The notes under the pieces are model-generated. The model saw nothing but the letters and a program-made list of their open reading frames with translations. It made no database searches and was not told the DNA's origin. Position numbers and translations under genes: made by a program. This document shows, piece after piece, positions 2-46,607 of a stretch of DNA of 64,000 nt; within the stretch, counting starts at the first letter, position 1; every line of letters starts with the position of its first letter. This DNA is from a virus (Duplodnaviria; Heunggongvirae; Uroviricota; Caudoviricetes), in the IMG/VR virus record IMGVR_UViG_3300029621_000179. The stretch is one strand, 5' to 3'.

Positions 2-172
2 GAGGCAGACGACCCGGCAGAGGACATCGACTTCGATGAGATGCTGGCTCGCATCCACAAGGAAACCGGTCTGTGTGAGAAGGTCATTCTGGCAGTTCTG
101 AAGGCACAGGCCGATTATCTGGATGACCTGTGGGGGGATGAGGAAGAAACCGGAGAGGAGGCAAACGCATGA
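2..172 (+). CDS. hypothetical protein, C-terminal fragment (5' end outside window)
   Basis: Open frame from the window edge to TGA at 170-172; acidic C-terminus; the next gene overlaps it (ATGATG). Confidence 0.35.
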   Translation, partial: EADDPAEDIDFDEMLARIHKETGLCEKVILAVLKAQADYLDDLWGDEEETGEEANA

Positions 173-2765: not shown

Positions 2766-4763
2766 TTGAAAGAAACGCTGATCGATATTGAGACCTACAG
2801 CGAGGTGGACATCGGAAAATGCGGCCTGTACCGCTATGCTACAGATCCCAGCTTTGAGATCCTGCTTATTGCCTGGGCGACCGATGAAGGGGACGGTTTT
2901 GGCGAGACCAGGTGTGCAGACCTTGCATCGGGAGAACCGCTCCCGGAAGAGCTGCTGGAGGATTTTCAGTCTGGAAATGTGCGGCTGATCGCCCACAATG
3001 CTTCCTTTGAGCGGGTCTGTTTTTCCGTGCATCTGCAAAGACATCTGCCGGGACAGTATCTGAAACCCGGAGAGTTCCTGTCGCCAGACAGCTGGATCTG
3101 CACGATGGTTATGGCGGCATCGTTGACTCTGCCAATGGCTCTAAAGGATGTTGGAGCCGTGCTGAAGACCAGCCAGCAGAAAGACAAGGAAGGCGAGCGG
3201 CTGATCAAGCTGTTTTCCATGCCCTGTAAGCCGACGAAAAGCAATGGGATGCGTACCCGGAATCTTCCGGAGCATTACCCAGCAGATTGGGAGAAGTTTA
3301 AGTATTACTGCATTCAGGATGTCAACACCGAGGTGGACATTTATAAGCGGCTGAAGAAATTCCCGATGCCGGTGCAGGAGTGGAAGCACTACCGGGTCAA
3401 TGAGCGTATCAATGACCGGGGCGTAAAGATCGACACGGAGCTGGTGCAGCAGGCCGTTGCCTGTGACCTGATGCTCTCGGACGCTATGAGTAAGAAAGCC
3501 TACGAACTGACCGGGCTTGAGAATCCCAACTCTGTGTCACAGCTGAAGTCATGGCTGGATGAACGGGGCATTCCAATGGACACGCTCGGAAAAAAGGATG
3601 TAGCACAGATGATCGATGAACTGGACAAGAACGGAGTGGATGCTGAGGCAATGGATATGCTGAAGCTCCGGCTCCAGATGGCAAAAAGCTCTGTGAAGAA
3701 ATATCAGGCGGCAGAACGCTGTGTCTGCTCAGATGGCAGAGCAAGAGGTCTGTTCCAGTTCTATGGGGCCAGCCGCACAGGTCGGTATTCCGGCCGGAAT
3801 ATCCAGTTGCAGAATCTGCCGCAGAACCATATTTCCACGCTGGATGAGGCGAGGGAACTGGTGAAGCTGGGGTGTTTTGATATGGTCGAGACCATCTACG
3901 GCAACACCCCGGACGTGCTTTCACAGCTGATCCGAACCATGCTGATCCCAAAAGAAGGCTGTGAGTTCATCGTGGCTGATTTCTCTGCCATCGAAGCCCG
4001 TGTGCTTGCATGGGAAGCCGGGGAGGACTGGCGACTGGAAGCCTTTCTGGAAGGAAAGGACATCTACTGTGCCTCTGCCAGCCAGATGTTTCATGTGCCG
4101 GTGGTGAAGCACGGCATCAACGGGGAACTTCGGCAGAAAGGAAAGGTGGCAGAGCTGGCCTGTGGTTATGGTGGTTCTTCCGGTGCGCTCATCAGTATGG
4201 GTGCTCTGCAGATGGGCCTGAAAGAAGAGGAACTGCCGGAGATCATCGATTCCTGGCGGGAAGCCAATCCAAAGATCGTCCAGTATTGGTGGGATGTGGA
4301 AAAGGCGGCAACGCAGGCATTCAAGACCGGAAAGCGACAGGAGATCGGCAAGCTGGCATTTGAGTTTTATTCCGGTACGCTTTGGATGCTGCTTCCTTCT
4401 GGAAGAAAGCTGGCGTATCTGAAGCCGAGACTGCAGCCGAACCGCTTCGGAAGGATGAGCCTGACCTATGAAGGAGTGGGGCAAAACCACAAATGGGCCA
4501 GGCAGGAAACCTACTCCGGCCGGCTGGTGGAGAACGCAACCCAGGCCATCGCCCGTGACATTCTGGCAGAAGCAATGGCCCGGATGGAAGGCTATGGTCT
4601 GAATATCGTAGGTCACGTTCACGATGAAGTCATCATCGAAGCACCCAGGGATCAGTACACAGTGGATGAGGTCTGCAAGCTGATGTCTGTTAACCCGGAG
4701 TGGTGCAAAGACCTTCCTCTGAATGCTGCCGGATATAAGGGCAGCTATTACTTTAAGGATTAA
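2766..4763 (+). CDS. family A DNA polymerase (Pol I-like) with 3'-5' exonuclease domain
   Basis: TTG start after RBS AGAGGTGAG; Exo I motif LIDIETYS; a long polymerase domain follows (KGKVAELACGYGG, HVHDEVIIE). Confidence 0.8.
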   Translation: MKETLIDIETYSEVDIGKCGLYRYATDPSFEILLIAWATDEGDGFGETRCADLASGEPLPEELLEDFQSGNVRLIAHNASFERVCFSVHLQRHLPGQYLKPGEFLSPDSWICTMVMAASLTLPMALKDVGAVLKTSQQKDKEGERLIKLFSMPCKPTKSNGMRTRNLPEHYPADWEKFKYYCIQDVNTEVDIYKRLKKFPMPVQEWKHYRVNERINDRGVKIDTELVQQAVACDLMLSDAMSKKAYELTGLENPNSVSQLKSWLDERGIPMDTLGKKDVAQMIDELDKNGVDAEAMDMLKLRLQMAKSSVKKYQAAERCVCSDGRARGLFQFYGASRTGRYSGRNIQLQNLPQNHISTLDEARELVKLGCFDMVETIYGNTPDVLSQLIRTMLIPKEGCEFIVADFSAIEARVLAWEAGEDWRLEAFLEGKDIYCASASQMFHVPVVKHGINGELRQKGKVAELACGYGGSSGALISMGALQMGLKEEELPEIIDSWREANPKIVQYWWDVEKAATQAFKTGKRQEIGKLAFEFYSGTLWMLLPSGRKLAYLKPRLQPNRFGRMSLTYEGVGQNHKWARQETYSGRLVENATQAIARDILAEAMARMEGYGLNIVGHVHDEVIIEAPRDQYTVDEVCKLMSVNPEWCKDLPLNAAGYKGSYYFKD

Positions 4764-4775
4764 AGGGGGAACGAG

Positions 4776-5114
4776 ATGCCTCACGTTCTAAAAATGAAAG
4801 ACGGAAAACTCCTTACACCCTTTGGCATCCGGGATCTGCTGGATGCGGTGCAGGACTATGCCGGAGAGGAACTCCGCCGGGAGATCGAGGAATATATCGA
4901 AACTAATGTGCAGGATATCGATGATTACGAAAAAGAGTACGACCGCATGGAACAGGAGAATGAACGCCTGGCTGACCATCAGCGGTCAGTCCTCTGTGAC
5001 ATCCGGGACGAGGTGGCTGCTCTGGACACACTCCTGCAGGATACCCGGCTGAACCGTAGACGTATGCAGGGTGCCGTTCGGATCATCCAGCAGATGATCA
5101 ACCGGGAATTGTAA
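4776..5114 (+). CDS. hypothetical protein
   Basis: 112 aa ORF packed tightly after polA; charged, coiled-coil-like. Confidence 0.45.
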   Translation: MPHVLKMKDGKLLTPFGIRDLLDAVQDYAGEELRREIEEYIETNVQDIDDYEKEYDRMEQENERLADHQRSVLCDIRDEVAALDTLLQDTRLNRRRMQGAVRIIQQMINREL

Positions 5115-6933: not shown

Positions 6934-8312
6934 AGTTCATTCCACATGATTATCAGAGCTACTGTACGGAGTATATCAAAACACACTCGGTCGCAGCCCT
7001 TTTTCTGGATATGGGCTTGGGTTAAGGAAAGACCGTTATCACATTGACGGCCATCAAAGACCTTATGCTGGAGACCTTCGAGGTCAGCAAGGTCCTGATC
7101 ATTGCGCCGCTGCGTGTGGCCCGTGATACATGGCCGGCAGAGATCGAAAAGTGGGATCATCTGCAAGGTCTGGATATTTCTGTCATCGTAGGTGATACAA
7201 AGACCCGCATTGCAGCACTCCACCATCCGGCGATGATCTATGTCATCAACCGTGAAAATATCAAATGGCTGGTGGAGTATTATGAGAAAAACGGAATGCG
7301 CTGGGATTTTGGCATGGTCGTGATCGATGAGCTGTCATCGTTCAAGAACTACCAGTCCCAGCGTTTTAAATTCCTGCGGAAAGTCCGCCCGTATGTGAAA
7401 CGATGGGTCGGATTGACCGGCACCCCTTCTTCCAATGGTCTCATGGATCTTTGGGCGGAGATCGGGATTCTGGATGGCGGGGAGCGGCTTGGCAAATTCA
7501 TCGGCCGGTACAGGGAGGCTTATTTCAAGGCTTCTTCCATGAATCCTTCCACGGGTGTTGTGTTCCAATACAAGCCCAGAGAAGGAGCAGAGGAGCTGAT
7601 CTACCAGCGGATCTCGGATATCACGATTTCTATGAAAGCACTGGATTACCTTCATATGCCGGACTGTATTCCAAGCCGGTATGAGGTGGAGATGAGGGCA
7701 CCGGAGCGGGAACTCTACGATATGCTTCGGAAGGACCTGTTGATCCCGCTGAAAGATGGTGATATAGATGCTGCCAATGCTGCATCACTGACAGGAAAGC
7801 TGTTGCAGATGAGTAATGGTGCTGTCTATGACGAGAACGGCAAAGCGCGAGTCATCCATGACCACAAGCTGGAAGCTCTCGAAGACCTGATCGAAGCAGC
7901 CAACGGACAGCCAGTGCTAGTGGCCTACTGGTTCAAGCATGACCGCCAGCGCATTATGAAGCATCTGGCAAAGCAGAGGATTCCGGTACGGGATATCAAG
8001 AGCAGCACCGACATCAGGGACTGGAATGCCGGGAACATCCCGGTTGCCCTGATTCACCCGGCATCGGCCGGACACGGTTTGAACATCCAGCAAGGCGGAC
8101 ACATCCTGATCTGGTTTGGATTGACATGGAGCCTGGAATTGTATCAGCAGACCAATGCCAGACTCTGGCGGCAGGGGCAGACGGATGTGGTCACCATCCA
8201 CCATATCATCACCAAGGACACGGTAGACGAGGATGTCATGGCGGCTTTGGAGCAGAAGGACATGACACAGGAAAAACTGATCTCAGCGGTCAAGGCACAG
8301 CTGGGGAGATAG
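6930..8312 (+). pseudogene. SNF2-family helicase interrupted by in-frame TAA inside motif I (DMGLG*GKT)
   Basis: Strong RBS GAGGAGGTGA. The N-terminus MKFIPHDYQ...LFLDMGLG is followed by TAA at 7023-7025. The same frame then continues GKTVITLTAIKDLML... through a complete SNF2 helicase core to 8312. Confidence 0.7.
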
Positions 8313-8330
8313 GAGAGAATATGAAAAAGT

Positions 8331-9019
8331 ATCTGTTTTTGAATGCAGAGGACCGCCGTCCGGCAGAGGAGAGCGATTATCGTTATAAAAAGTCCAAGCC
8401 GGTAACGGCAATGAAAGCCAAAAGAGATGAGGAGGGATTCTTCATCCCCTGGGCAATGTTTCGGCCGATTGGCGAAAAGGGACTTCTTTGTGAGCTCTTT
8501 GGTGCAAACCCGATCCGCAGGGCAGCAGACCTGCGGATGAACCGGGATCTTCTCATGAAGGAAGCCTATGAGCATGAAGTGGAACTTCTGATGTGCCATA
8601 TCCGGGCAAGTGAGCTCTGGATGCAGCAGGAATTCTGTAAGGAAGAACAGGCTATTGAACTGTATCAGAAATCCAAGATCCAGAATATGCCCAAGCTCAC
8701 CCCGGACGGAAAACGAAAGGTCCTGCTGGATGCACTCACATGGAAATACGACTGTGTCCAGCAGTACAAAAAGATCTGTTTTCAGTTTGCAGAGGCGGTC
8801 ATTGCAAGGGAAAAGAGCCAGAATCTGGGGAATGCGAACCGGGAGCACTTTATCGAACAGTTCATCAAGAAAGCAAATGAACTGCCGGAAGCAAACCGCC
8901 GTTTGCTGGATCTTTTATATGAGACTGCGTGGCACACGATCTATGTTTTCAAGTACGGAACTGCTCCGGAGAAGGTGCCGGCACCCTGGTATGACAGGAT
9001 GGGAGGCGTTGAAAAATGA
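8331..9019 (+). CDS. hypothetical phage protein
   Basis: ATG 8331 after an RBS-like GGAGAGAA; 229 aa; no family recognised. Confidence 0.45.
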
Positions 9020-9327
9020 GCAGAGTAAGAAGTGCTGCAAAAGTTGCTGTCAGTGAAAATACTGCCTGCTATGAGAACCTGGCAAATGCCATCATCCTGC
9101 AGGCGGTCAAGGATTATAAGTGGGCGCTTCACCGGCTGGATGTCAATCCAAAGAACCGGGATGCAATGCACGAGAAAGAAAGACTGGAACGATTCTTTCA
9201 CTCTCCGTGGTATGAGACGCTTACGGATCTGGATGCGGACCGGCTGATCGAAGGGGTGAAGGAGCGGGTGCATCAGGAAGCAGCCAAGCGGAGAAAGAAG
9301 AAAGCCGCTGGGAAAGCACCAAGCTAA
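9016..9327 (+). CDS. hypothetical protein
   Basis: 103 aa ORF with a start overlapping the upstream stop; basic C-terminus. Confidence 0.4.
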   Translation: MSRVRSAAKVAVSENTACYENLANAIILQAVKDYKWALHRLDVNPKNRDAMHEKERLERFFHSPWYETLTDLDADRLIEGVKERVHQEAAKRRKKKAAGKAPS

Positions 9328-9362
9328 GTACCAATAGGATCGGTCAGAAAGGAGGACGAACA

Positions 9363-9911
9363 ATGGCTGAGGAAAAGAATGTAGCATCTGCCAATGAACC
9401 TGGACAGGTGGATTGTCTGGAGCTGGTCAAAAAACTGGCCGATTCTTACCGCTGTTTGGTCCGCAGACGGGAGCTGCTCCGACAGCAGTATGAAGAATCC
9501 AAATCGTGGTTTTACACGAAAGAAGAGATCATCTATAAACTGTCACAGGGCGCACATGAGGAATCCGAACGGGTGCAGACAAGCGGACTGTCGAACCCGG
9601 TGGAGCGAACGGTCCTTAATTGCGATAAGGTGCTGGCATCCATGAACCGGGAAGTGCAGACACAGCGCACGGAGCAGTTTCTGGAACCTTACTATGAAGT
9701 CTGTGAGCAGATCGAACTCTTTGAAATCGGGCTTCGCAGTCTGCGTGGCCAGACCCGGCTTGTGGCGGAGCAGTTGTTTGTGGATGGGAAGAAGCAGTCG
9801 GAAATCACAGGGGCGGAGGGAAAATTGCTGACCCGGAGAACGGTAGTCCGGGAGAAAGAAAATGCCCTCATTGGAATGGCCGACACAATTGGCCGCTATC
9901 AGAGGAGGTGA
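9363..9911 (+). CDS. putative sigma-70 region-4-like transcriptional regulator (ArpU/RinA-like)
   Basis: C-terminal LVAEQLFVDGKKQSEITGAEGKLLTRRTV resembles a sigma region-4 HTH; weak call. Confidence 0.3.
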   Translation: MAEEKNVASANEPGQVDCLELVKKLADSYRCLVRRRELLRQQYEESKSWFYTKEEIIYKLSQGAHEESERVQTSGLSNPVERTVLNCDKVLASMNREVQTQRTEQFLEPYYEVCEQIELFEIGLRSLRGQTRLVAEQLFVDGKKQSEITGAEGKLLTRRTVVREKENALIGMADTIGRYQRR

Positions 9912-37250: not shown

Positions 37251-37865
37251 ATGTCGAAGCAAAACAATAAGGTCAAATTTGGCCTGAAAAACTGCCACTA
37301 TGCAAAGGCGACCTTTGACGAAGATGGCAGTGTCACTTATGCAAAGCCGGTCCGCATCCCCGGTGCAGTCAGTCTTTCTATGGATGCCAATGGCGAGATC
37401 GAGCCGTTTTATGCGGACAATATCGCCTACTATGTCGTGAATAACAACTCCGGCTACGAGGGTGATCTGGAGATCGCGCTGATCCCGGAGAGCTTCCTCA
37501 CGGACATCATGCACGAGGAGCTGGATGGCAACGGTGTGCTTGCGGAAAACGCCAATGTGGAACTGGAGCATTTCGCATTCCTGTTCGAGTTTGATGGCGA
37601 CCAGCGCCACATCCGTCATGTGCTGTACAACTGTGTGGCAAGTCGTCCGTCCATCGAGGGTGAGACCAATGAGGACAGCAAGGAAGTCAAGACGGACACC
37701 CTGAACTTGCAGGCAACCCCTCTGGCAAACGGTTATGTCAAGGCAAAGACCGGCACCAACACCACCGATGATGTCTATAACAAATGGTACGATGCGGTCT
37801 ACGAGCCGCAGGCAGAAGCTGTGGACACCGAAGACACCAGTCACACTGAGGAGCCGCAGGGTTAA
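37251..37865 (+). CDS. major tail protein
   Basis: 204 aa; RBS AGGAGGAATAACC; phi13/TP901-1-like major tail sequence; it lies upstream of the chaperone genes. Confidence 0.7.
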   Translation: MSKQNNKVKFGLKNCHYAKATFDEDGSVTYAKPVRIPGAVSLSMDANGEIEPFYADNIAYYVVNNNSGYEGDLEIALIPESFLTDIMHEELDGNGVLAENANVELEHFAFLFEFDGDQRHIRHVLYNCVASRPSIEGETNEDSKEVKTDTLNLQATPLANGYVKAKTGTNTTDDVYNKWYDAVYEPQAEAVDTEDTSHTEEPQG

Positions 37866-37927: not shown

Positions 37928-38755
37928 ATGAAGAAAATTTTTCCTTTGTTCGCAGCAATCATCATTCTGGTACTGGCTGTCTGCTCGTTCCACATCATCC
38001 CCACCGGCTACACCGGCGTGAAGACCAGTTTCGGTCAGATCCAGGAGACCACCATCCAGAGCGGCAAGCTCAACTTCTGCATTCCTTTTGTGCAGAGCAT
38101 CCACAAGGTCAACAACAAGCAGCAGGATAAGCATATCGAAGCACAGGTCTGGGGCGAAGCCTCTGACAAGACCCCTGTGTATGCTGCTGATGTCATCGTG
38201 ACCTATCAGGTGCTTCCTGAGAAGAGTGCATGGCTGTATGCGAATGTGTCCGACATCAAGAATCTGGTCGGTGACGAGCTGGTGGCATCGGCAATCAAGT
38301 CTGCAATGGCTGAACTTGGCCCCAATGAGGTAACCAACCGCACCAAGATCGAGCCTCTGGCACAGCAGAAGCTGGCAGAGTCCCTTGTGCAGAAATATGG
38401 TGAGGACGTTGTGTTCGTAAACAAGGTCGTCATCAACGACATGAATTTCGAGGATGCCTATAACGAAGCCATCCAACAGAAGTCCATTGCACAGCAGAAC
38501 GCGGATAAGCAGAAGATTGAGAATGAAGCTGCCATTGCCAAGGCAGAAGCGGATAAGCAGGTGGCAATCACCAATGCAGAGGCGGAAGCTCAGAAGACTT
38601 CTATTGCTGCAGACGCACAGGCAGAGGCAAACCGCAAACTGGCAGAAAGCCTGTCCGATACGCTGATCGATTACCAGAAGGTTCAGAAATGGGATGGAAA
38701 GCTGCCTACTGTGAGCGGCGGTAATGCACTGGTCAGCATTGACCCGGCAGAGTAA
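37928..38755 (+). CDS. SPFH/Band-7 (prohibitin/HflKC-like) domain membrane protein
   Basis: N-terminal TM helix, then IIPTGYTGVKTSFGQI, then an Ala/Gln/Glu-rich coiled coil (AEADKQVAITNAEAEAQK) typical of SPFH proteins. Confidence 0.7.
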   Translation: MKKIFPLFAAIIILVLAVCSFHIIPTGYTGVKTSFGQIQETTIQSGKLNFCIPFVQSIHKVNNKQQDKHIEAQVWGEASDKTPVYAADVIVTYQVLPEKSAWLYANVSDIKNLVGDELVASAIKSAMAELGPNEVTNRTKIEPLAQQKLAESLVQKYGEDVVFVNKVVINDMNFEDAYNEAIQQKSIAQQNADKQKIENEAAIAKAEADKQVAITNAEAEAQKTSIAADAQAEANRKLAESLSDTLIDYQKVQKWDGKLPTVSGGNALVSIDPAE

Positions 38756-38770
38756 GAAACACGATATACG

Positions 38771-38788
38771 GCAGGGCTTCGGCTCTGC
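38771..38788 (+). repeat. hairpin GCAGGGC-TTCG-GCTCTGC (copy 2)
   Basis: Identical to the copy at 37882; followed by CAATTTTACAT. Confidence 0.6.
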
Positions 38789-38822
38789 CAATTTTACATG
38801 AAATTTATGGAGGATTACGATT

Positions 38823-39203
38823 ATGGCAGTTACAAAGAAAATCGAGATCGATGGCAAGGAAGTCACCTTTAAGGCAAGTGCCGCTGTGCCTCGCCTGTAC
38901 CGCATCAAGTTCGGCCGTGATATCTACAAAGACCTGCGTCAGCTGGAAAAGAGCGTGGGAGAGAATGATGAGGACAATTCCAACCTCGACCTGTTCAGTC
39001 TGGAGATGTTCGAGGACCTGGCATGGCTGATGGCTCGTCATGCGGACCCGGCAAAGGTGCCGGACAGCCCGGAGGAGTTTCTGGACCAGTTCAACACCTT
39101 CTCCATCTACCAGATCCTGCCCCAGCTGATCGAACTGTGGGGTCTGAACGTGCAGACCGAGGTGGAATCCAGAAAAAACCTTGCAAAAGTGAGCGGGAAA
39201 TGA
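38823..39203 (+). CDS. tail assembly chaperone (gpG-like)
   Basis: 126 aa directly upstream of the tape measure region; slippery A_AAA_AAC near its 3' end. Confidence 0.6.
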   Translation: MAVTKKIEIDGKEVTFKASAAVPRLYRIKFGRDIYKDLRQLEKSVGENDEDNSNLDLFSLEMFEDLAWLMARHADPAKVPDSPEEFLDQFNTFSIYQILPQLIELWGLNVQTEVESRKNLAKVSGK

Positions 39204-39364
39204 CCACCCCGCTCTTTCTGCTGCGCTGTGTACAGCTCGGTATCAGCATCGCCGACCTCGACCTGCTGACCATCGGGTTGGTCAATGATATGTTCACGGA
39301 GCGGCAGAATGACGACTATCCGTACAAAGAGCTGGCATCGCAGGAGGACTTTGACCGGTTCTAA
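38823..39364 (+). CDS. tail assembly chaperone G-T fusion via programmed -1 frameshift at 39173-39179
   Basis: A_AAA_AAC heptamer in frame 0; the -1 frame stays open to 39364 (EREMTTPLFLL...). Confidence 0.5.
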
Positions 39365-39415
39365 GACAAAAACAGACGAACGTGCTTATATCGCAAATGA
39401 AATAAGCACGTTCGT
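39362..39415 (-). terminator. intrinsic terminator (14 bp perfect stem) for minus-strand Abi transcript
   Basis: ACGAACGTGCTTAT...ATAAGCACGTTCGT with a U-run on the minus strand (CUGUUUUUGUCUUA). Confidence 0.55.
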
Positions 39416-39426
39416 CGAGTGAGCGT

Positions 39427-39464
39427 AAAGAAAAATCCCGCTCAGCCGTTGATGACTGGGCGGG
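39427..39464 (-). terminator. intrinsic terminator immediately 3' of Abi gene (minus strand)
   Basis: CCCGC...GCGGG stem followed on the minus strand by AUUUUUCUUU. Confidence 0.5.
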
Positions 39465-39471
39465 AAAGTCT

Positions 39472-40419
39472 TTATCGTTTGTATTGAGTCAGTTTCATCC
39501 AATTACTTGGAAAGCCAAGCTTATCATACAGTTGCTGCTGCGTGAGTCGGGAGCTTTCTTTTTGATATGTGCGAATGAGGCTAACAAGGCTTTTTTTGAA
39601 TTTCTTAAAGCTATCGTCAGAGAGAAGATAGCGGAAGGCTATAACTAAAGCGAAATAATCTCGTTTTCCCTGAGTGTACTGTGTTCCAGTTTTGGGAATA
39701 TTGAGTTTGCGATGAAGATTGGTGTCCGGAATATCACGGCGAGAAGAGAAACAATAGAGACACTCATTGTGTGCGCATACGTTTCTGTAAAAGGTTAAAC
39801 ATCTTAAGAACTGTTCCAGTTCCTTTTCGTTTACATGAGGATATTCTTGGGCAACGGCACTTTGCAGGGAGAAGGGCAAAAGCGAATACATTTTAGATAT
39901 TTGCCCAAAAGTCAATGCATTCACAGCAACCCAAAGCGGAACATTTTGATGTGCATTTCGCTGATGGACGAGATACGAATGATCTGTATCTCGATTGGCT
40001 ATTTTACTGAGAATATTCGTTAACACTGCGATATTGCGAGCATATTTCGGCTCAGAACGGTAGCTTGCAGTTGATATGTAGTGAGTTTGACTATCCCCGT
40101 GATGCTGACAAAAACAATAGGAAATAACCTGACGAATTTTCATTTCTACTTCGCACAGGTATTTAAAAGTAAGTTCTCGGAGTTCTCTGTCAAACTTATA
40201 GAGAGCATAGATATCCTCAAAAGTAGTATTAATGTATTTCCGAGTCATGGGGTTCTTAAATGGATATTTATAACCACCAATAAGGGAAAAATAGCCGATG
40301 TTAATTAAAGATTCCTTGGTGATGTTTTCATCAGAAATAATGAGTCCCTTTTGATTCTTAAGAATATCTATTTGCTGATCGTATGTTCTAAAGCGATCAT
40401 TCTGTAATTGATTAGGCAT
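39472..40419 (-). CDS. abortive-infection protein, Abi_2 (AbiD/AbiF-like) family
   Basis: RBS AAAGGAG; N-terminus MPNQLQNDRFRTYDQQIDILKNQKGLII and overall ~315 aa match AbiD/AbiF-like proteins; antisense to the tail operon. Confidence 0.7.
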   Translation of the reverse strand: MPNQLQNDRFRTYDQQIDILKNQKGLIISDENITKESLINIGYFSLIGGYKYPFKNPMTRKYINTTFEDIYALYKFDRELRELTFKYLCEVEMKIRQVISYCFCQHHGDSQTHYISTASYRSEPKYARNIAVLTNILSKIANRDTDHSYLVHQRNAHQNVPLWVAVNALTFGQISKMYSLLPFSLQSAVAQEYPHVNEKELEQFLRCLTFYRNVCAHNECLYCFSSRRDIPDTNLHRKLNIPKTGTQYTQGKRDYFALVIAFRYLLSDDSFKKFKKSLVSLIRTYQKESSRLTQQQLYDKLGFPSNWMKLTQYKR

Positions 40420-40449
40420 CTCCTTTGCCTCACATTCGGTAAACTCGTG

Positions 40450-40483
40450 ATAAAAAGAAAAGAGGAGGGCCAACAGGTCCTCC
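40450..40483 (-). terminator. terminator-like hairpin inside the Abi 5' leader (candidate attenuator)
   Basis: On the minus strand, GGAGGACC-uguu-GGCCCUCC followed by UCUUUUCUUUUUAUC; it lies between the promoter and the RBS. Confidence 0.45.
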
Positions 40484-40531
40484 CCCCGGTCTCAGTCCTC
40501 GCGAGTATCTGAAACCTGATCACTGAAGCAT

Positions 40532-40560
40532 AGTATAGCAGTTTGCATCTAAAAAGTCAA
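40532..40560 (-). promoter_or_regulatory. sigma70-like promoter on minus strand (TTGACT-17-TATACT) driving the Abi gene
   Basis: Read as the reverse complement of AGTCAA...AGTATA on the plus strand; near-consensus hexamers with a 17 nt spacer. Confidence 0.55.
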
Positions 40561-40697
40561 GACTTTGAAGAGAAAAACCGCAACGTTGCTTCGTGATTAT
40601 TATATGCTGAACAATTTGAATTGATACACAGTATTTGCCTGTCTGTTTTACGCAGATGGGCTTTTCTTATGCCCAAAACGAGGAGGTGGTCATCCGC

Positions 40698-43600
40698 ATG
40701 GCATCCAGAATCCAGGGCATCACCGTTGAGATCGGCGGCGATACCACAAAGCTCTCCAAAGCACTGGAAGGTGTAAACAAGTCAATCAAGGGGACGCAGT
40801 CCGGACTGAAGGATGTCAACAAACTCCTGAAACTGGACCCCTCCAATACAGAACTGGTCGTCCAGAAGCAGAAGATGCTGAAGGATGCCATTGAAGCTAC
40901 CAAGGAAAAGCTGGCAACTCTGAAGACTGCCGCACAGCAGGCCAATGAGCAGCTTGCCAACGGTGAGATCACCCAGCAGCAGTACGATGCCCTCCAGCGT
41001 GAGATTGTGGAGACCGAACAGAATCTGCGATCCTTACAGGACCAGGCGGCTACTACCAATGCGACTCTTGCCAAAATCGATGAAGCCGGAGAAAAGCTCC
41101 AGAACATCGGATCTTCTGTGGAGAATGTCGGTAAGAAGTTCCTGCCGGTGACTGCCGCTGTAACGGGTCTTGGTACGGCAGCAGTAAAAACCGCAGCCGA
41201 TTTCGATTCCGAGATGAGTAAGGTTTCTGCCATTTCCGGTGCAACAGGGGATGATTTTGACCAGCTCCGTGCGAAAGCCCGTGAGATGGGTGCGAAGACC
41301 AAGTTCTCTGCATCTGAGGCAGCTTCGGCGATGGAATACATGGCCATGGCCGGTTGGAAAACCGGGGACATGCTGAACGGCATCGAGGGCATCATGAACC
41401 TTGCGGCCGCTTCGGGCGAAGACCTCGCCACGACTTCGGATATCGTCACGGATGCCCTCACAGCTTTCGGTTTGTCTGCGGCGGATTCCGGGCATTTTGC
41501 AGATATCCTTGCAGCCGCTTCATCCAATGCGAATACCAACGTCAGCTTGATGGGCGAGACGTTCAAGTACTGTGCACCTATCGCCGGTGCGCTTGGGTTC
41601 TCGGCAGAGGATACCGCAGAAGCCATCGGTCTGATGGCAAACAGTGGTATCAAGGCTTCACAGGCGGGTACTTCCCTTCGTACCATCATGAACAACCTTT
41701 CCGGTGAAGTGACCTTTGTCGGTAAAAACATCGGTGAAGTTACGATTGCCACCAGCAATGCAGATGGCAGCATGAGGAGCCTGAATGATATCCTCGCAGA
41801 CTGCCGTGTAGCATTCTCTGGCTTGACCGAATCTGAAAAAGCATCCAATGCAGAGGCACTGGTCGGCAAGAATGCGATGTCTGGTTTCCTTGCCCTGATG
41901 AATTCCAGCGAGACGGACATCAACAAACTGCGTGGTGCCATTGAAAACTGTGACGGCGCATCCGAGAGCATGGCAGAAACCATGCAGGACAACTTAAATG
42001 GTCAGCTCACCATCCTGAAATCTCAGCTGGAGGAGCTGGCTATTTCTTTTGGCGATATCCTGATGCCCACCATCCGCAAGATCGTATCTGCCGTGCAACA
42101 GTTCGTGGACAAGCTCAACAGCATGGATGAGAGCACCAGGGAAACGATCATTAAGATCGGGCTACTGGCAGCATCCATTGGTCCGCTGCTCATTGTGCTG
42201 GGCAAGACCATATCGACCGTCGGCACAGCAATGCGGGGGTTCAGTTCTCTTGCAAAGGGTGTCCGGCTTCTCATCACCCATGTGGGCAGTGCCAGTGGTG
42301 TGTTCAGCAAGCTGGGTGTGGTTCTGGGTGGTCTGTCCGGCCCGGTTGTAGCAGTAGTGGCGGTCATCGGTACACTGGTGGCGGCCTTCATGAACCTCTG
42401 GAACACCAACGAGGAGTTTCGTACTGCCATTACCGGCATCTGGAACGACATTGTTTCCAAAGTGAAAGGCTTCTGCGACCAGCTGACACAGCGGATCAAC
42501 GGACTGGGCTTTGACTTTAAGGATGTCACAGAGGTACTGAAGGCAGTATGGGATGGTTTCTGTCAGGTGCTTGCACCGCTGTTTGAGGGAGCGTTCCAGA
42601 ATATTGCCACCATCCTAGGCGTCGTTCTGGATACCTTACTGGGTCTTTTCGATGTCTTTTCCAATGTGTTCTCCGGCAACTGGAGTGGCGCATGGGAAGC
42701 GGTGAAGGGTATCTTCTCCAGTATCTGGGATGGCGTGAAGTCCATTTTCTCCACGACCCTTACTGCTCTGAAGAGTGCGCTGGATGTGTTCCTTGGGCTG
42801 TTCGGTACGGACTGGCAGACGGTCTGGGGCAGTATCAAGAGCTTCTTCGAGACTGTGTGGAGTGGAATCAGCAGCTTCTTTTCAAACACAGTTTCCGCTA
42901 TCCAAAGTGTAGCAACGACTGTATTTACAGCAGTGTCTGGATTTTTCACCACCGTCCTTACGAGTATCCAGACGACCTTCAGCACCATCTGGACTGCCAT
43001 TTCCACAGCAGTTTCTTCTGTGATGAATACGATCCATGCCACGGTGACAACTGTGTGGACGGCAATCTCGACCGCGATCTCTACGGTCATGAACACCATC
43101 AGCACGACCATCACTTCGGTGTGGAATGGCATTTACAACACCATCAATCCTCTGCTGGATGCGTTCAAATATCTGTTTGAGACCATCTGGCAGGCGATCC
43201 AGATCCTAATCGGCGCAGCACTGACCGCAATTCAGACGAAGATCACTTCCATCTGGAACGCCATCGTTGCCTTCGTGACTCCGATGCTGACTGGATTGCA
43301 GACGACTTTCTCTACAGTTTGGTCAGCGATTCAGACAGCTATCTCCACGGTGCTGACTGCGATCCAGACTGCAGTGACGACGGTGTGGAACGCCATTGTG
43401 TCGTTTCTGTTTCCGCTGCTGACTGGCATCCAGACCCGGATGAGTACGGCATGGAATGCAATCAAAACGGTCATCTCGACTGTCCTTTCTGCGATTCAGT
43501 CCACGGTTTCTTCCATCTGGAATGCCATTAGCAGCAAGATCTCCGGTGTGGTAAATGGCATCAAATCGGTAGTTTCTTCCGGCTGGAATGCCATGAAATC

Positions 43601-46600
43601 CACGGTATCGTCCCTCAGTAACAGCATTAAGAGTGCGGCGGCCACAGCTTTTAACTCGATGAAATCCGGGATTTCCTCTACGATTTCCGGTATTAAGACC
43701 ACCATCACGAACGGTTTTAACAGTGCAGTTTCCTTTATCAAGGGTCTGGCTGGACAGGCGTTCTCGTGGGGCTCTGACATGATCGGCAACATTGTGTCCG
43801 GTATCCAGTCGAGGATTCAGGATGTGGCAAGTGCTGTATCGGGAGTGGCAGACCGTATCCGTTCCTTCCTGCACTTCTCTGTGCCGGATGAAGGACCTCT
43901 GGCAGATATGGAAAGCTGGATGCCGGACTTCATGCAGGGTCTGGCAAACGGTATCACGACCAACACCAGCCTTGTGACTGCGGCGGCGGAGAACCTGTCC
44001 ACCACGCTGTCTACCTCCATCACCAACTCCATGAGGGGTGTGGAGCAGGCATACAGTAAGAGCTGGGCAGCCATCAGCCAGACGGTGAAAACCGGAACGG
44101 CAGGTGTAAGTGCTGCGATGAGATCCGCATGGAGTTCCATTACGACCAGTACCGCCAGCACATGGAATACCATCAAGTCCAGTATCCAGAACAGCTTCTC
44201 GGCGGTGAAATCCAATGTGACCTCTGCGACAGCAGCAGTGAAAACGTCCATGACCAGTGCATGGAATGCGGTGAAGTCGCTGACAACGACCAGCTGGAAC
44301 GGAATTAAAACGGTCATTACCACAGCGTGGAACGGGATTAAATCCCTTACCACCTCTGCGACCGCTTCTGTAAAAACGTCCATGACCAGCGCATGGAATG
44401 CGGTGAAAAACCTGACGAATACCAGCTGGAATGGTATCAAAACAGTCATCACGACTGCATGGAACAGCATCAAGAGTCTTACAACTTCCTCTGTATCCGC
44501 AGTTCGCAGTACGGTCACAAGCGGCTGGAACACACTGAAATCTACCACGACCTCTGCCTTCAACAGCATCAAGTCCACGGTGTCTTCGGCAATGTCCAGC
44601 CTGCGCAGCACGGTTTCTTCTGGTGTTGCAAGTATCAGGAGCAGTTTTAACTCGCTCGGTTCGATTGCTTCTTCGGCATACCGCTGGGGTGCAGATATCT
44701 GTTCCCAGATGGCGTCAGGTGTCCGGGCAGCAGCCGGTTCCGTGATCGCAGCGGCAGAAAATGTCGCAAGCAGAGTCAGAAGCCTGCTGCATTTCTCTGT
44801 ACCAGATGAAGGACCTCTGTCTGATGCAGATACCTATATGCCCGACTTCATGAAGCTGCTGGCGACCGGCATTAAGAAAAATGTCAAGTCGGTGGTGAAA
44901 GCCGTGCAGGGACTTGCCGGGTCTATGAGCAACAACCTCACGACCCCGGTAGATTCTCTGGGCGACTGGATGGATTCCGTGGTCGGCAGTTTTGCTACTA
45001 CGATCAAGAAAAGTCAGAGCGGTATCGGTAGTGCTGCAAGGGATGTGGGCAGCGGTATCCAATTACAGTTGATGTCCGGGCTTTCCGGTCTGAAAACACA
45101 GTTCCAGCAGATCTGGACTGACCTGCAGGGTATCACCAAAACCGCAGTCGGCGGCATGAGCGATGAAGTGAAGCAGGGCTTTGCGGATATGAAGGATTCC
45201 GTTGGAGAGCTGAGTTCTCAGACCAGTTCTCTTGGAAATGCGATCCGCAGTCTTGGCGACACCTTCAACTCGGATTTCCTAAAGAGCCTGGGCAACGGCA
45301 TCAGCAAGGTCGGTGACACGGTCAATACGGTCACGGGTCTAGTGGACAAGCTCGGCTCCATGAAGAACACCATCGGAAATCTCGGAAATACGATGCAGAA
45401 CCTTGGCAATGTCCTCGGTACAGAGAACGGCGGTGGTCTGTTGTCCAACATCGGAGATTTCTTGTCGAAGATCGGCAGTGCAGATGGAGGTCAGATCGTG
45501 TCGAAGTTTGGCAATCTGATCTCTGGGCTGACCTCCAAAATGGGCGGTCTGGGAGAGGGAATCTCCGGCATCATCTCGAAGCTGGGAAGCCTTGGCTCCA
45601 GCGGTGGGGGAATCCTGTCGAATCTGGGTGGGCTGCTTTCCGGTGTAGTGTCGAAGATCGGCGGCTTAGGCGGCAGTCTTTCCGGTATCGTATCATCTAT
45701 CGGTTCTTCGCTGGGCGGTATTGCCGGGACAGTCGGCACAACGCTTTCCGGTCTGCTCGGATCTGTGGGTACGACTGTATCCGGTCTGGCCGCTGGCGCG
45801 GGTACAGCCCTTGCAGGCGTAGCAAGCTCCGCAGGTGGGTTCCTCGCATCCGCAGGCACAGCACTTGCCGGCTTGGCGGGTCCTGCAGGTATCGCAGTGG
45901 CAGCCGTTGGCGGCATCGGTCTTGGACTGACGAGCCTCTGGAAAAACTGCGATGGCTTCCGGGAAGGTGTCACAAATATCTGGAACAAGGTTACGTCGGT
46001 ATTCTCGAATGGAGTAAACGCCATCAAGAACGGTATTTCTAATGCGGCTTCTGCTATTGGCAATGTGGCATCGTCCATCTGGGGCGGTATCAAGAACGTG
46101 GCTTCTTCGGCAGTCAGCTGGGGCAAGGACATCGTTGGCGGTATCGCGGGCGGTATCAAGAAAGGCGTGAGCTGGGTCGGCAATGCGGTCAAGAGTGTGG
46201 CAAATGGCATCCGCTCGTTCTTGCACTTCTCTGTGCCGGATGAAGGACCGCTGGCAGATGCCGATACCTATATGCCCGACTTCATGAAGCTGCTTTCCGG
46301 CGGCATCAAGAAAGGCGAAGGCGGACTGATCAGCCAGATCAGGTCGATGGCAGCAAAGGTACAGCAGGGTATGGAGGGCATCAGCTCCTTCAGTCTGCCG
46401 GAACTGACCTTGCCACATTTCGATGGCTCCGGTTGGAACTTCCCGCAGGCGGCTCTGGCCGGAGGTGGCACCACCCGGACGACCAACCTTGGCGGTGTGT
46501 ATATCACAGTCAACGGTTATAATGCCCGGAACGACGATGAACTCGCACAGACCGTTGCCGATAAGATCAACGGCATGATCCATGAGGATGATTCGGTCTT

Positions 46601-46607
46601 CAAGTAA
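40698..46607 (+). CDS. tail tape measure protein (~1970 aa) with three internal repeats of a ~300 aa module
   Basis: RBS GGAGGTGG; N-terminal coiled coil and TM-rich middle; the triplicated motif SFLHFSVPDEGPL(A/S)D...MPDFM; its position is between G-T and Dit. Confidence 0.85.
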   Translation: MASRIQGITVEIGGDTTKLSKALEGVNKSIKGTQSGLKDVNKLLKLDPSNTELVVQKQKMLKDAIEATKEKLATLKTAAQQANEQLANGEITQQQYDALQREIVETEQNLRSLQDQAATTNATLAKIDEAGEKLQNIGSSVENVGKKFLPVTAAVTGLGTAAVKTAADFDSEMSKVSAISGATGDDFDQLRAKAREMGAKTKFSASEAASAMEYMAMAGWKTGDMLNGIEGIMNLAAASGEDLATTSDIVTDALTAFGLSAADSGHFADILAAASSNANTNVSLMGETFKYCAPIAGALGFSAEDTAEAIGLMANSGIKASQAGTSLRTIMNNLSGEVTFVGKNIGEVTIATSNADGSMRSLNDILADCRVAFSGLTESEKASNAEALVGKNAMSGFLALMNSSETDINKLRGAIENCDGASESMAETMQDNLNGQLTILKSQLEELAISFGDILMPTIRKIVSAVQQFVDKLNSMDESTRETIIKIGLLAASIGPLLIVLGKTISTVGTAMRGFSSLAKGVRLLITHVGSASGVFSKLGVVLGGLSGPVVAVVAVIGTLVAAFMNLWNTNEEFRTAITGIWNDIVSKVKGFCDQLTQRINGLGFDFKDVTEVLKAVWDGFCQVLAPLFEGAFQNIATILGVVLDTLLGLFDVFSNVFSGNWSGAWEAVKGIFSSIWDGVKSIFSTTLTALKSALDVFLGLFGTDWQTVWGSIKSFFETVWSGISSFFSNTVSAIQSVATTVFTAVSGFFTTVLTSIQTTFSTIWTAISTAVSSVMNTIHATVTTVWTAISTAISTVMNTISTTITSVWNGIYNTINPLLDAFKYLFETIWQAIQILIGAALTAIQTKITSIWNAIVAFVTPMLTGLQTTFSTVWSAIQTAISTVLTAIQTAVTTVWNAIVSFLFPLLTGIQTRMSTAWNAIKTVISTVLSAIQSTVSSIWNAISSKISGVVNGIKSVVSSGWNAMKSTVSSLSNSIKSAAATAFNSMKSGISSTISGIKTTITNGFNSAVSFIKGLAGQAFSWGSDMIGNIVSGIQSRIQDVASAVSGVADRIRSFLHFSVPDEGPLADMESWMPDFMQGLANGITTNTSLVTAAAENLSTTLSTSITNSMRGVEQAYSKSWAAISQTVKTGTAGVSAAMRSAWSSITTSTASTWNTIKSSIQNSFSAVKSNVTSATAAVKTSMTSAWNAVKSLTTTSWNGIKTVITTAWNGIKSLTTSATASVKTSMTSAWNAVKNLTNTSWNGIKTVITTAWNSIKSLTTSSVSAVRSTVTSGWNTLKSTTTSAFNSIKSTVSSAMSSLRSTVSSGVASIRSSFNSLGSIASSAYRWGADICSQMASGVRAAAGSVIAAAENVASRVRSLLHFSVPDEGPLSDADTYMPDFMKLLATGIKKNVKSVVKAVQGLAGSMSNNLTTPVDSLGDWMDSVVGSFATTIKKSQSGIGSAARDVGSGIQLQLMSGLSGLKTQFQQIWTDLQGITKTAVGGMSDEVKQGFADMKDSVGELSSQTSSLGNAIRSLGDTFNSDFLKSLGNGISKVGDTVNTVTGLVDKLGSMKNTIGNLGNTMQNLGNVLGTENGGGLLSNIGDFLSKIGSADGGQIVSKFGNLISGLTSKMGGLGEGISGIISKLGSLGSSGGGILSNLGGLLSGVVSKIGGLGGSLSGIVSSIGSSLGGIAGTVGTTLSGLLGSVGTTVSGLAAGAGTALAGVASSAGGFLASAGTALAGLAGPAGIAVAAVGGIGLGLTSLWKNCDGFREGVTNIWNKVTSVFSNGVNAIKNGISNAASAIGNVASSIWGGIKNVASSAVSWGKDIVGGIAGGIKKGVSWVGNAVKSVANGIRSFLHFSVPDEGPLADADTYMPDFMKLLSGGIKKGEGGLISQIRSMAAKVQQGMEGISSFSLPELTLPHFDGSGWNFPQAALAGGGTTRTTNLGGVYITVNGYNARNDDELAQTVADKINGMIHEDDSVFK

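Follow-up and report, generated by a model that had tools for sequence, protein, structure and literature searches.

Proteins of the AbiD/F family are frequently annotated as single-gene 'Abi' (abortive infection) systems. Here, we analysed such a gene and the RNA that precedes it in the IMG/VR record IMGVR_UViG_3300029621_000179, a 64,000-nt stretch of Caudoviricetes DNA that we call the window. We consider it probable that this gene and its leader form a two-component toxin–RNA module of the AbiD/F type, akin to type III toxin–antitoxin systems and carried by a prophage as a moron.

The RCd22–AbiFCd system of the Clostridioides difficile phi027 and phiC2 prophages (Saunier et al. 2025) consists of a SigA promoter, the non-coding RNA (ncRNA) RCd22, a Rho-independent terminator, a ribosome-binding site (RBS) and abiFCd, in that order (PMC12373285). 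The short RCd22 RNA predominates and read-through gives the abiFCd mRNA. AbiFCd is toxic through an RNQCAH HEPN motif and is neutralised by RCd22 both in cis, through termination, and in trans, through direct binding; in a tagged-RNA pull-down, AbiFCd was the main partner of RCd22 (PMC12373285). For the PbAbiF–AbiFr system (Zilberzwige-Tal et al. 2025, Cell 188:1925), PMC12373285 and PMC12737573 describe a solved structure (PDB 8VZ6) in which a PbAbiF homodimer is accompanied by two ncRNAs, and the same two sources relate that AbiF has been proposed as an ancestor of Cas13. Bases C32 and U38 of AbiFr lie in the HEPN groove. Among the lactococcal proteins, AbiD1 depends on a short stretch upstream of its gene that contains a strong promoter and a terminator; the same holds for AbiF and AbiD-like, and the upstream segments of all three are more conserved than the genes (PMC11381338, PMC13064643); AbiD1 is also activated at the translation level by a phage protein (PMC13064643). 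Across these systems, the promoter–ncRNA–terminator–abi architecture is a hallmark of the AbiD/F family. The order of promoter, RNA antitoxin, terminator and toxin gene is also that of classical type III systems (ToxIN, AbiQ, CptIN, TenpIN), in which the terminator sets the ratio of RNA to protein and the phenotype is abortive infection. Both experimentally studied AbiF RNAs, RCd22 and AbiFr, belong to the Rfam abiF RNA motif (RF03085), which is reportedly the work of Weinberg et al. 2017.

The locus in the window has the same organisation: one promoter precedes the RNA, and an intrinsic terminator separates the RNA from the open reading frame (ORF) of the toxin (Table 1). As in RCd22–AbiFCd, the elements of a prophage-borne Abi_2/HEPN toxin with an RNxCAH motif follow in the order promoter, ncRNA, terminator, RBS and abi without a second promoter; indeed, the promoter scan found no promoter-like site between the leader terminator and the Abi ORF. 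The two systems differ in that the window protein is only ~29% identical to AbiFCd, and in that the C. difficile gene lies between holin and endolysin genes on the same strand, whereas the window gene is antisense, between the genes for the G/GT tail assembly chaperones and the tape measure protein. With PbAbiF, the locus shares an upstream ncRNA with a U-run just before the start codon; PbAbiF differs in its Bacteroidota host and in a locus outside a phage tail module. The lactococcal abiD, abiD1 and abiF genes resemble the window gene in an upstream segment that is more conserved than the gene, but are plasmid-borne. Classical type III systems differ in their toxin fold, which is ToxN/AbiQ rather than Abi_2/HEPN.

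Table 1. Predicted features of the Abi cassette and of the neighbouring tail genes (positions in the window).
Feature	Position	Strand	Details
Complete transcription unit	40560-39362	-	promoter to last terminator
Sigma-70 type promoter	40532-40560	-	-35 TTGACT 40560-40555, 17-nt spacer, TGn-extended -10 TATACT 40537-40532
Conserved ncRNA, ~72 nt	40452-40524	-	single-stranded 5′ tail AGUGAUCA, H1, H2, U-tract; 5′ end predicted
Hairpin H1	40488-40516	-	GGUUUCAG-AUACUCGCGAGGA-CUGAGACC
Hairpin H2 with U-tract	40452-40485	-	GGGGGAGGACC-UGUU-GGCCCUCCUC 40485-40462, then U-tract UUUUCUUUUU 40461-40452
Shine-Dalgarno GAGG	40428-40431	-	8 nt before ATG 40419
Abi_2 / AbiD-F family protein	40419-39472	-	315 aa; predicted HEPN RNase toxin
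HEPN catalytic motif	39769-39786	-	R212-N-V-C-A-H217 (RNVCAH)
First 3′ terminator	39427-39464	-	CCCGCCCAGUC...GGCUGAGCGGG then AUUUUUCUUU; hairpin 39464-39437
Second 3′ terminator	39363-39416	-	perfect 15-bp stem 39416-39402 / 39389-39375, 12-nt loop, then UGUUUUUGUCUU
Tail tube gene	37251-37865	+	PF06488
G/GT tail assembly chaperone pair	38823-39364	+	126-aa G-like ORF 38823-39203, -1 frame to 39364
Tail tape measure protein	40698-46607	+	ATG 40698; phrog_1272 4.5e-170; PF10145 on L001 orthologue

Profile searches bore out the first-pass annotation of the ORF as a member of the Abi_2 (AbiD/F-like) family. The protein matched PF07751 over profile positions 2–183 of 184 (E 7.6e-47, 160.4 bits against a cutoff of 25.6), its best PADLOC model was AbiD (2.9e-62) with no other PADLOC family matched, and phrog_2158, an 'abortive infection resistance protein' in the moron category, matched at 1.1e-70. 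The only PDB entry matched by sequence was that of PbAbiF (8vz6_A; E 8e-15, ~28% identity), and by this homology the Abi protein is predicted to have the four-helix HEPN fold and to form a homodimer. R212 and H217 of its HEPN motif align to the catalytic R210 and H215 of PbAbiF; as reported in PMC12373285, mutation of these two residues inactivates PbAbiF and the equivalents in AbiFCd are R202 and H207. Five residues of the motif (R212, N213, C215, A216 and H217) were invariant across 13 homologues that are 53–75% identical.

The Abi leader is ~105 nt long and contains two hairpins, H1 and H2. From the promoter geometry, transcription is predicted to start near A40524. H1 has an 8-bp stem (GGUUUCAG/CUGAGACC), a bulge AU(A), an inner helix (C40505-G40497 and U40504-G40498) and the apical loop CGCGA. 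H2 and its U-tract make up the predicted intrinsic terminator, at which the ncRNA would end and which would control read-through to the Abi gene. This hairpin and U-run, which the first-pass annotation had described as perfect, are real and conserved, but the stem carries a conserved A·C mismatch at 40478/40469, because of which a simple terminator scan missed it. An Abi_2 match and a conserved hairpin, the two points on which that annotation had staked its account of the locus, were both found.

Support for the leader structure comes from covariation and not from folding energy. In an alignment (A3) of 53 homologous sequences with 21 pairs, 90% of cells were paired and both sides had changed in 16/21 pairs, values reached by 0/500 shuffles; when the 3′ partners were slid as a control, pairing fell to 39–59%. 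Both-side changes were seen in 8/11 pairs of H1, where pair 18–39 occurred as GC (20), UA (17), CG (8), GU (5) and AU (2), and in 8/10 pairs of H2. The minimum-energy fold included H1 in 51/53 homologues and H2 in 52/53, with a mean pair probability of 0.88 for H2. The sequence of H2 is conserved to a degree that is unusual for a terminator (A-U in 52/53, G-C in 52/53 and C-G in 53/53), and three single-stranded positions of the RNA alignment are invariant, namely G9 and A10 in the 5′ tail and A22 in the bulge. Two coding readings of this region, a leader peptide (51-aa ORF, 40368–40523) and an alternative TTG start at 40473 (giving a 333-aa ORF), both run through the hairpins; they were rejected because the G-run varies by 1–2-nt indels among homologues, whose proteins begin at the position corresponding to ATG 40419.

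The RNA is more conserved than the gene that follows it. Over ~63 nt, the RNA is 92–94% identical where the DNA of the Abi ORF is 61–73% identical, and an alignment of upstream regions, including those of homologues whose proteins are 75% and 68% identical, is nearly invariant between the -10 and the terminator. The promoter is the sole minus-strand promoter-like site found by pattern scan in 38500–41500, and a TTGnnn-16..18-TAnnnT pattern occurs at the same place in 84/87 distinct homologous upstream regions, its -10 ending 5–7 nt before the conserved RNA (AGUGA). A genome scan gave 80 loci (hereafter numbered L001 onwards, together with other contigs) in Lachnospiraceae, Oscillospiraceae and other Clostridia, with Abi proteins 45–60% identical. 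Using nhmmer with a 76-nt core, the element was found upstream of the Abi gene and on the same strand in nearly all 80 loci, and also in L033, where the Abi protein is 43% identical; altogether, more than 80 homologous Abi genes at 43–75% identity have it upstream. A covariance model of the RNA (R1) had one credible match in the window (86.3 bits, E 6e-27). In 702 kb of loci, 83/83 R1 matches were on the Abi strand and adjoined the Abi gene, lying upstream of it in almost all cases. Starting from the RNA instead, a degenerate RNA pattern was run against viral and metagenome contigs and occurred in 29 of the former and at least 120 of the latter, most of them of human-gut origin; among the 129 matches listed with enough downstream sequence, 94 had an Abi_2 gene next, at a median distance of 52 nt.

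Some loci depart from the RNA–Abi order. R1 matches were downstream of the Abi gene in L054, L081, L094 and for a second copy in L033. In L094 (RNA 2149–2230) and L081 (RNA 2138–2219), Abi comes first and the RNA follows with its own promoter, with none upstream. In L054, Abi is followed by two tandem RNAs (1252–1401), the sole tandem RNA duplication seen; L033 has the order RNA–Abi–RNA (RNAs 227–309 and 1317–1399); and L050 has two tandem RNA–Abi cassettes (RNAs 3081–3161 and 4879–4960). An RNA gene that is downstream of the toxin gene or duplicated cannot be a pure cis attenuator, which argues for a trans-acting product. Together, these comparisons show the leader to be a candidate RNA gene of 72 nt that is autonomous, conserved and covarying.

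A few copies were found beside other genes. In the metagenome contig L214, an RNA at ~1785 on the minus strand has its own promoter, and the gene ~100 nt further on encodes, in place of an Abi_2 protein, an Apea-like HEPN protein of 309 aa (motif RNRIGH; PF18739, 31.9 bits); this single case hints that the RNA may partner another HEPN family. In L114 and L115, the RNA precedes a Phd/YefM-like 72-aa ORF whose PF02604 score of 24.4 bits does not reach the curated cutoff (29.8), and L247 has AAA ATPase-like sequence fused to the N-terminus of an Abi protein (KPFITY...); these are orphan or rearranged copies.

Next, we compared the leader RNA with known RNA families. Neither a 2.3-kb nor a 161-nt query containing the leader had an Rfam 15 match at E ≤ 10, beyond noise (sbrA at 18 bits and miRNA models), and RF03085 was absent at E ≤ 1 from the relatives L006, L007, L032 and L033. 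The positive controls matched RF03085, at 37.6 bits for phiC2 and 58.5 bits for the PbAbiF locus. The latter was recovered via the protein (100% identical over 241 aa) and has RF03085 immediately before the start codon. Conversely, R1 did not match the phiC2 and PbAbiF loci with filters off, and so neither RNA model recognises the other's RNA. RF03085 and the window RNA are both small hairpin RNAs with an internal loop immediately upstream of Abi_2 genes, but they differ in sequence and the internal loop is on opposite sides. RF03085 is one hairpin with a 6-bp stem, a 3′-side internal loop (CAAAUC) and a 3-bp stem, whereas the window RNA consists of a conserved 5′ tail that is single-stranded and of two hairpins, the first with a bulge on its 5′ side and the second conserved in sequence and serving also as the terminator. 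RCd22 contains two RF03085 copies, unlike the single unrelated hairpin plus conserved terminator hairpin of the window RNA, and in the PbAbiF locus the abiF hairpin itself precedes the U-run, which in the window is preceded by the separate second hairpin. The leader RNA therefore falls outside RF03085 while sharing the architecture of the systems that carry it. Based on the comparisons with Rfam 15, phiC2 and PbAbiF, it is predicted to represent a different, uncatalogued RNA family. We tentatively propose, at a little under even confidence, that this RNA of 72 nt represents a second class of antitoxin RNAs for HEPN toxins, not relatable to abiF by covariance models, that serves a large Clostridia clade of AbiD/F proteins and behaves as a portable gene.

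A separate observation concerns L254, which encodes an AbiF 93% identical to PbAbiF. Directly upstream of its abiF motif and AbiF gene is a 94-aa ORF (979–1263) with a weak Cas2 match (PF09827), which is curious given the proposed ancestry of Cas13 in AbiF.

Based on these parts and on the studied relatives, we suggest how the cassette would function. In the lysogen, the strong sigma-70 promoter would fire antisense to the silent tail operon and most transcripts would end at the U-tract of H2, so that the ~72-nt RNA (5′ tail, H1 and H2) accumulates. A minority would read through to give Abi mRNA, ended by the two strong 3′ terminators, which would shield G/GT from antisense transcription. By analogy with RCd22–AbiFCd, the short RNA is expected to be dominant and the read-through mRNA minor. 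The RNA, in excess, would bind the predicted HEPN RNase and keep it inactive. An infecting phage may upset this balance, either because a labile RNA is lost after transcription shut-off or through a phage-encoded trigger; free Abi would then cleave RNA, arrest the cell and abort the infection. The anti-phage role is suggested by the history of the family in Lactococcus, and the toxicity, binding and neutralisation steps by the relatives described above; the independence of the RNA gene in position and copy number lends these steps indirect support.

Several points qualify or weigh against this interpretation. The folding energy of the leader, taken alone, was unremarkable (z −1.37), and shuffle controls of the kind used for covariation can be exceeded by related sequences without real structure; the slid-partner control and the variety of pair types observed speak against such a kinship artefact here. 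A single promoter match taken alone is at chance level (2 in 3 kb, against 3.4 expected from shuffles), but the pattern is kept in 84/87 homologous upstream regions. Classical type III antitoxins are tandem repeats processed by the toxin, whereas no tandem repeats were found in 40380–40700 and the window contains a single RNA copy. A further 35 of the 129 RNA-first matches listed had no detectable downstream Abi gene, although many of these copies look like remnants or rearrangements. Finally, since the RNA does not match RF03085 and the proteins share only ~28–29% identity, a transfer of the antitoxin-by-binding mechanism from the studied systems crosses both boundaries.

The main mechanistic alternative is that the leader acts purely in cis, as an attenuator or riboswitch-like element that controls read-through only, with a trigger leading to an antiterminated form and the short RNA having no function. 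The first-pass annotation had favoured a conditional read-through switch of this kind; the conserved terminator agrees with it, but as a description of an apparently autonomous RNA gene it proved too narrow. A terminator between promoter and RBS, with no second promoter, is what an attenuator would have. In C. difficile, premature termination was sufficient by itself to mask the toxin in cis, and a trigger akin to that of a riboswitch was suggested (PMC12373285), and AbiD1 mRNA is acted on by a phage protein (PMC13064643). However, the copies that are duplicated, or downstream with their own promoters, cannot attenuate in cis, and the conservation of single-stranded G9, A10 and A22 goes beyond the needs of a terminator. 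In addition, the minimum-energy folds, which contain H2 almost throughout, had no structure that competes with it: no antiterminator was apparent in these folds or by inspection, with no systematic search of suboptimal folds. A candidate antiterminator, formed in the fold of the window sequence by the 5′ tail and a UAUCAC beyond the terminator, was rejected as most homologues lack this pairing. We consider a pure cis attenuator unlikely, and an RNA-antitoxin module would describe the mechanism better than attenuation.

Two other explanations concern what the module is for and whether the RNA belongs to it. The module may mainly benefit the prophage in which it sits, as an addiction or stabilisation toxin–antitoxin system or a regulator of the phage's own lytic cycle, rather than defend the host. 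Type III-like systems can stabilise mobile elements, a role raised by the authors of the C. difficile study, in which anti-phage activity could not be shown (PMC12373285). The placement of the cassette is also suggestive: it is antisense and the promoter scan found no plus-strand promoter-like site before the tape measure gene, so that late transcription on induction must cross it. As speculation, such transcription might shut off the Abi gene, or titrate out the RNA, during the lytic cycle. On the other hand, the family is defined by abortive infection phenotypes in Lactococcus and the tail slot is not required, as in most of the 80 genome loci no homologue of this tail module was detected near Abi. 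A primary benefit to the prophage seems rather improbable, and would in any case be compatible with the toxin–RNA module, since it concerns benefit and not molecular mechanism. Alternatively, the RNA could be a small regulatory RNA in its own right that acts on other targets in the cell or phage and is only incidentally adjacent to Abi, given that some copies are alone or precede other genes (Phd/YefM-like, Apea-like HEPN). We find this very hard to reconcile with the 73% of listed RNA-first matches that directly precede an Abi_2 gene at a fixed distance, with the R1 matches in the 702 kb of loci, all of which adjoin an Abi gene, and with one of the exceptions again preceding a HEPN protein.

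The first-pass annotation had also proposed a moron arrangement, in which an autonomous antisense unit with its own promoter and two 3′ terminators is inserted between G/GT and the tape measure gene, and this was confirmed. The GC content of the cassette is 33–42%, compared with 50–57% in the flanks. In the related phage NatCom_42228, the gap from T to the tape measure gene is 15 nt with nothing between, and in NatCom_6238 (an Agathobacter phage; L252 3623–4507), the slot is occupied by an unrelated plus-strand ORF of 294 aa that matches nothing in Pfam, indicating that the T/tape-measure junction is a cargo hotspot in this phage group. Because it is AT-rich and absent from a related phage, the cassette is classed as a moron; with its own promoter and terminators, its position between conserved phage genes, its absence from relatives and its deviant composition, this classification is sound. 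The same antisense slot holds Abi homologues (55–99% identity) in ~14 other prophage loci (L001, L006, L007, L026, L034–L039, L042, L047, L048 and L060). In one of these, the 86-kb viral contig L026, ~2.8 kb of extra sequence (6956–9779) between the Abi cassette and the T gene represents additional cargo. No closely related Abi was found among deposited phages and plasmids; the best phage record is 55% identical and unannotated, and the plasmid matches listed are all ≤33%. The carrier is a temperate siphovirus or prophage of gut Clostridia related to Ca. Heliusvirales phages. Its nearest deposited phages are the human-gut 'NatCom' phages of the Ca. Heliusvirales, which share only G/GT DNA with the window.

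The 3′ end of the cassette fits closely against the chaperone genes. Folded together, the two 3′ terminators reach −52.5 kcal/mol (z −7.84, 0/200 shuffles as good) and fill the 107 nt to the T-frame stop codon (39362–39364), which the second one abuts. The second terminator is predicted to be unidirectional, since the plus strand has no U-run after the stem. The first is kept in L006, and in other relatives the Abi gene is followed by one or more hairpins with a U-run. The G-like ORF contains a slippery heptamer (A_AAA_AAC, 39173–39179), and an overlapping -1 frame extension ends at 39364. Profile matches in this region were to phrog_709 (1.2e-39) and phrog_3033 (6.9e-24), phage families without a functional name; the predicted identity as G/GT is based on the position between the tail tube and tape measure genes and on the frameshift signal.

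Other features of the region were noted. Between the tail tube gene and G is a gene for an SPFH/Band_7 membrane protein (37928–38755, plus strand; Pfam 2.2e-17, phrog_200 'lipoprotein'), which is followed by a terminator-like hairpin (38770–38789). It is present in L001, L006, L026 and L034 and absent in NatCom_42228, in which G directly follows the tube gene. This gene resembles a second moron of the tail module, here on the same strand. On the other side of the cassette, a plus-strand terminator-like hairpin (40637–40661, then TTTTCTTATG) lies between the Abi promoter and the tape measure gene, directly upstream of the RBS and ATG of the latter, which is an odd site for a plus-strand terminator of a late operon. 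It is kept in near-identical relatives only and may be due to chance (6 sites in the scan, 2.9 expected). The related prophage L006 has an enlarged intergenic region of 625 nt that contains, immediately before the Abi promoter, a DUF3800-XI RNA (Rfam RF02975; 5617–5664), whose score of 47.8 bits exceeds the gathering score.

In conclusion, a widespread clade of AbiD/F proteins in gut Clostridia appears to use an RNA other than RF03085 that has good covariation support and is spread over 80 species genomes in addition to the viral and metagenome contigs of the RNA-first scan. The covariance model R1 is ready for annotating such systems, and attempts to clone the Abi ORF without the 150 nt that precede it will probably fail or prove toxic. 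The G/GT–tape measure junction of Heliusvirales-like prophages emerges as a recurrent cargo slot, and the leader RNA provides a point of comparison for how HEPN toxins recognise their RNA partners. If it is indeed a second class of antitoxin RNA, the RNA partnership in the proposed ancestral lineage of Cas13 would not be bound to one scaffold, and its RNAs would have been exchanged or reinvented.

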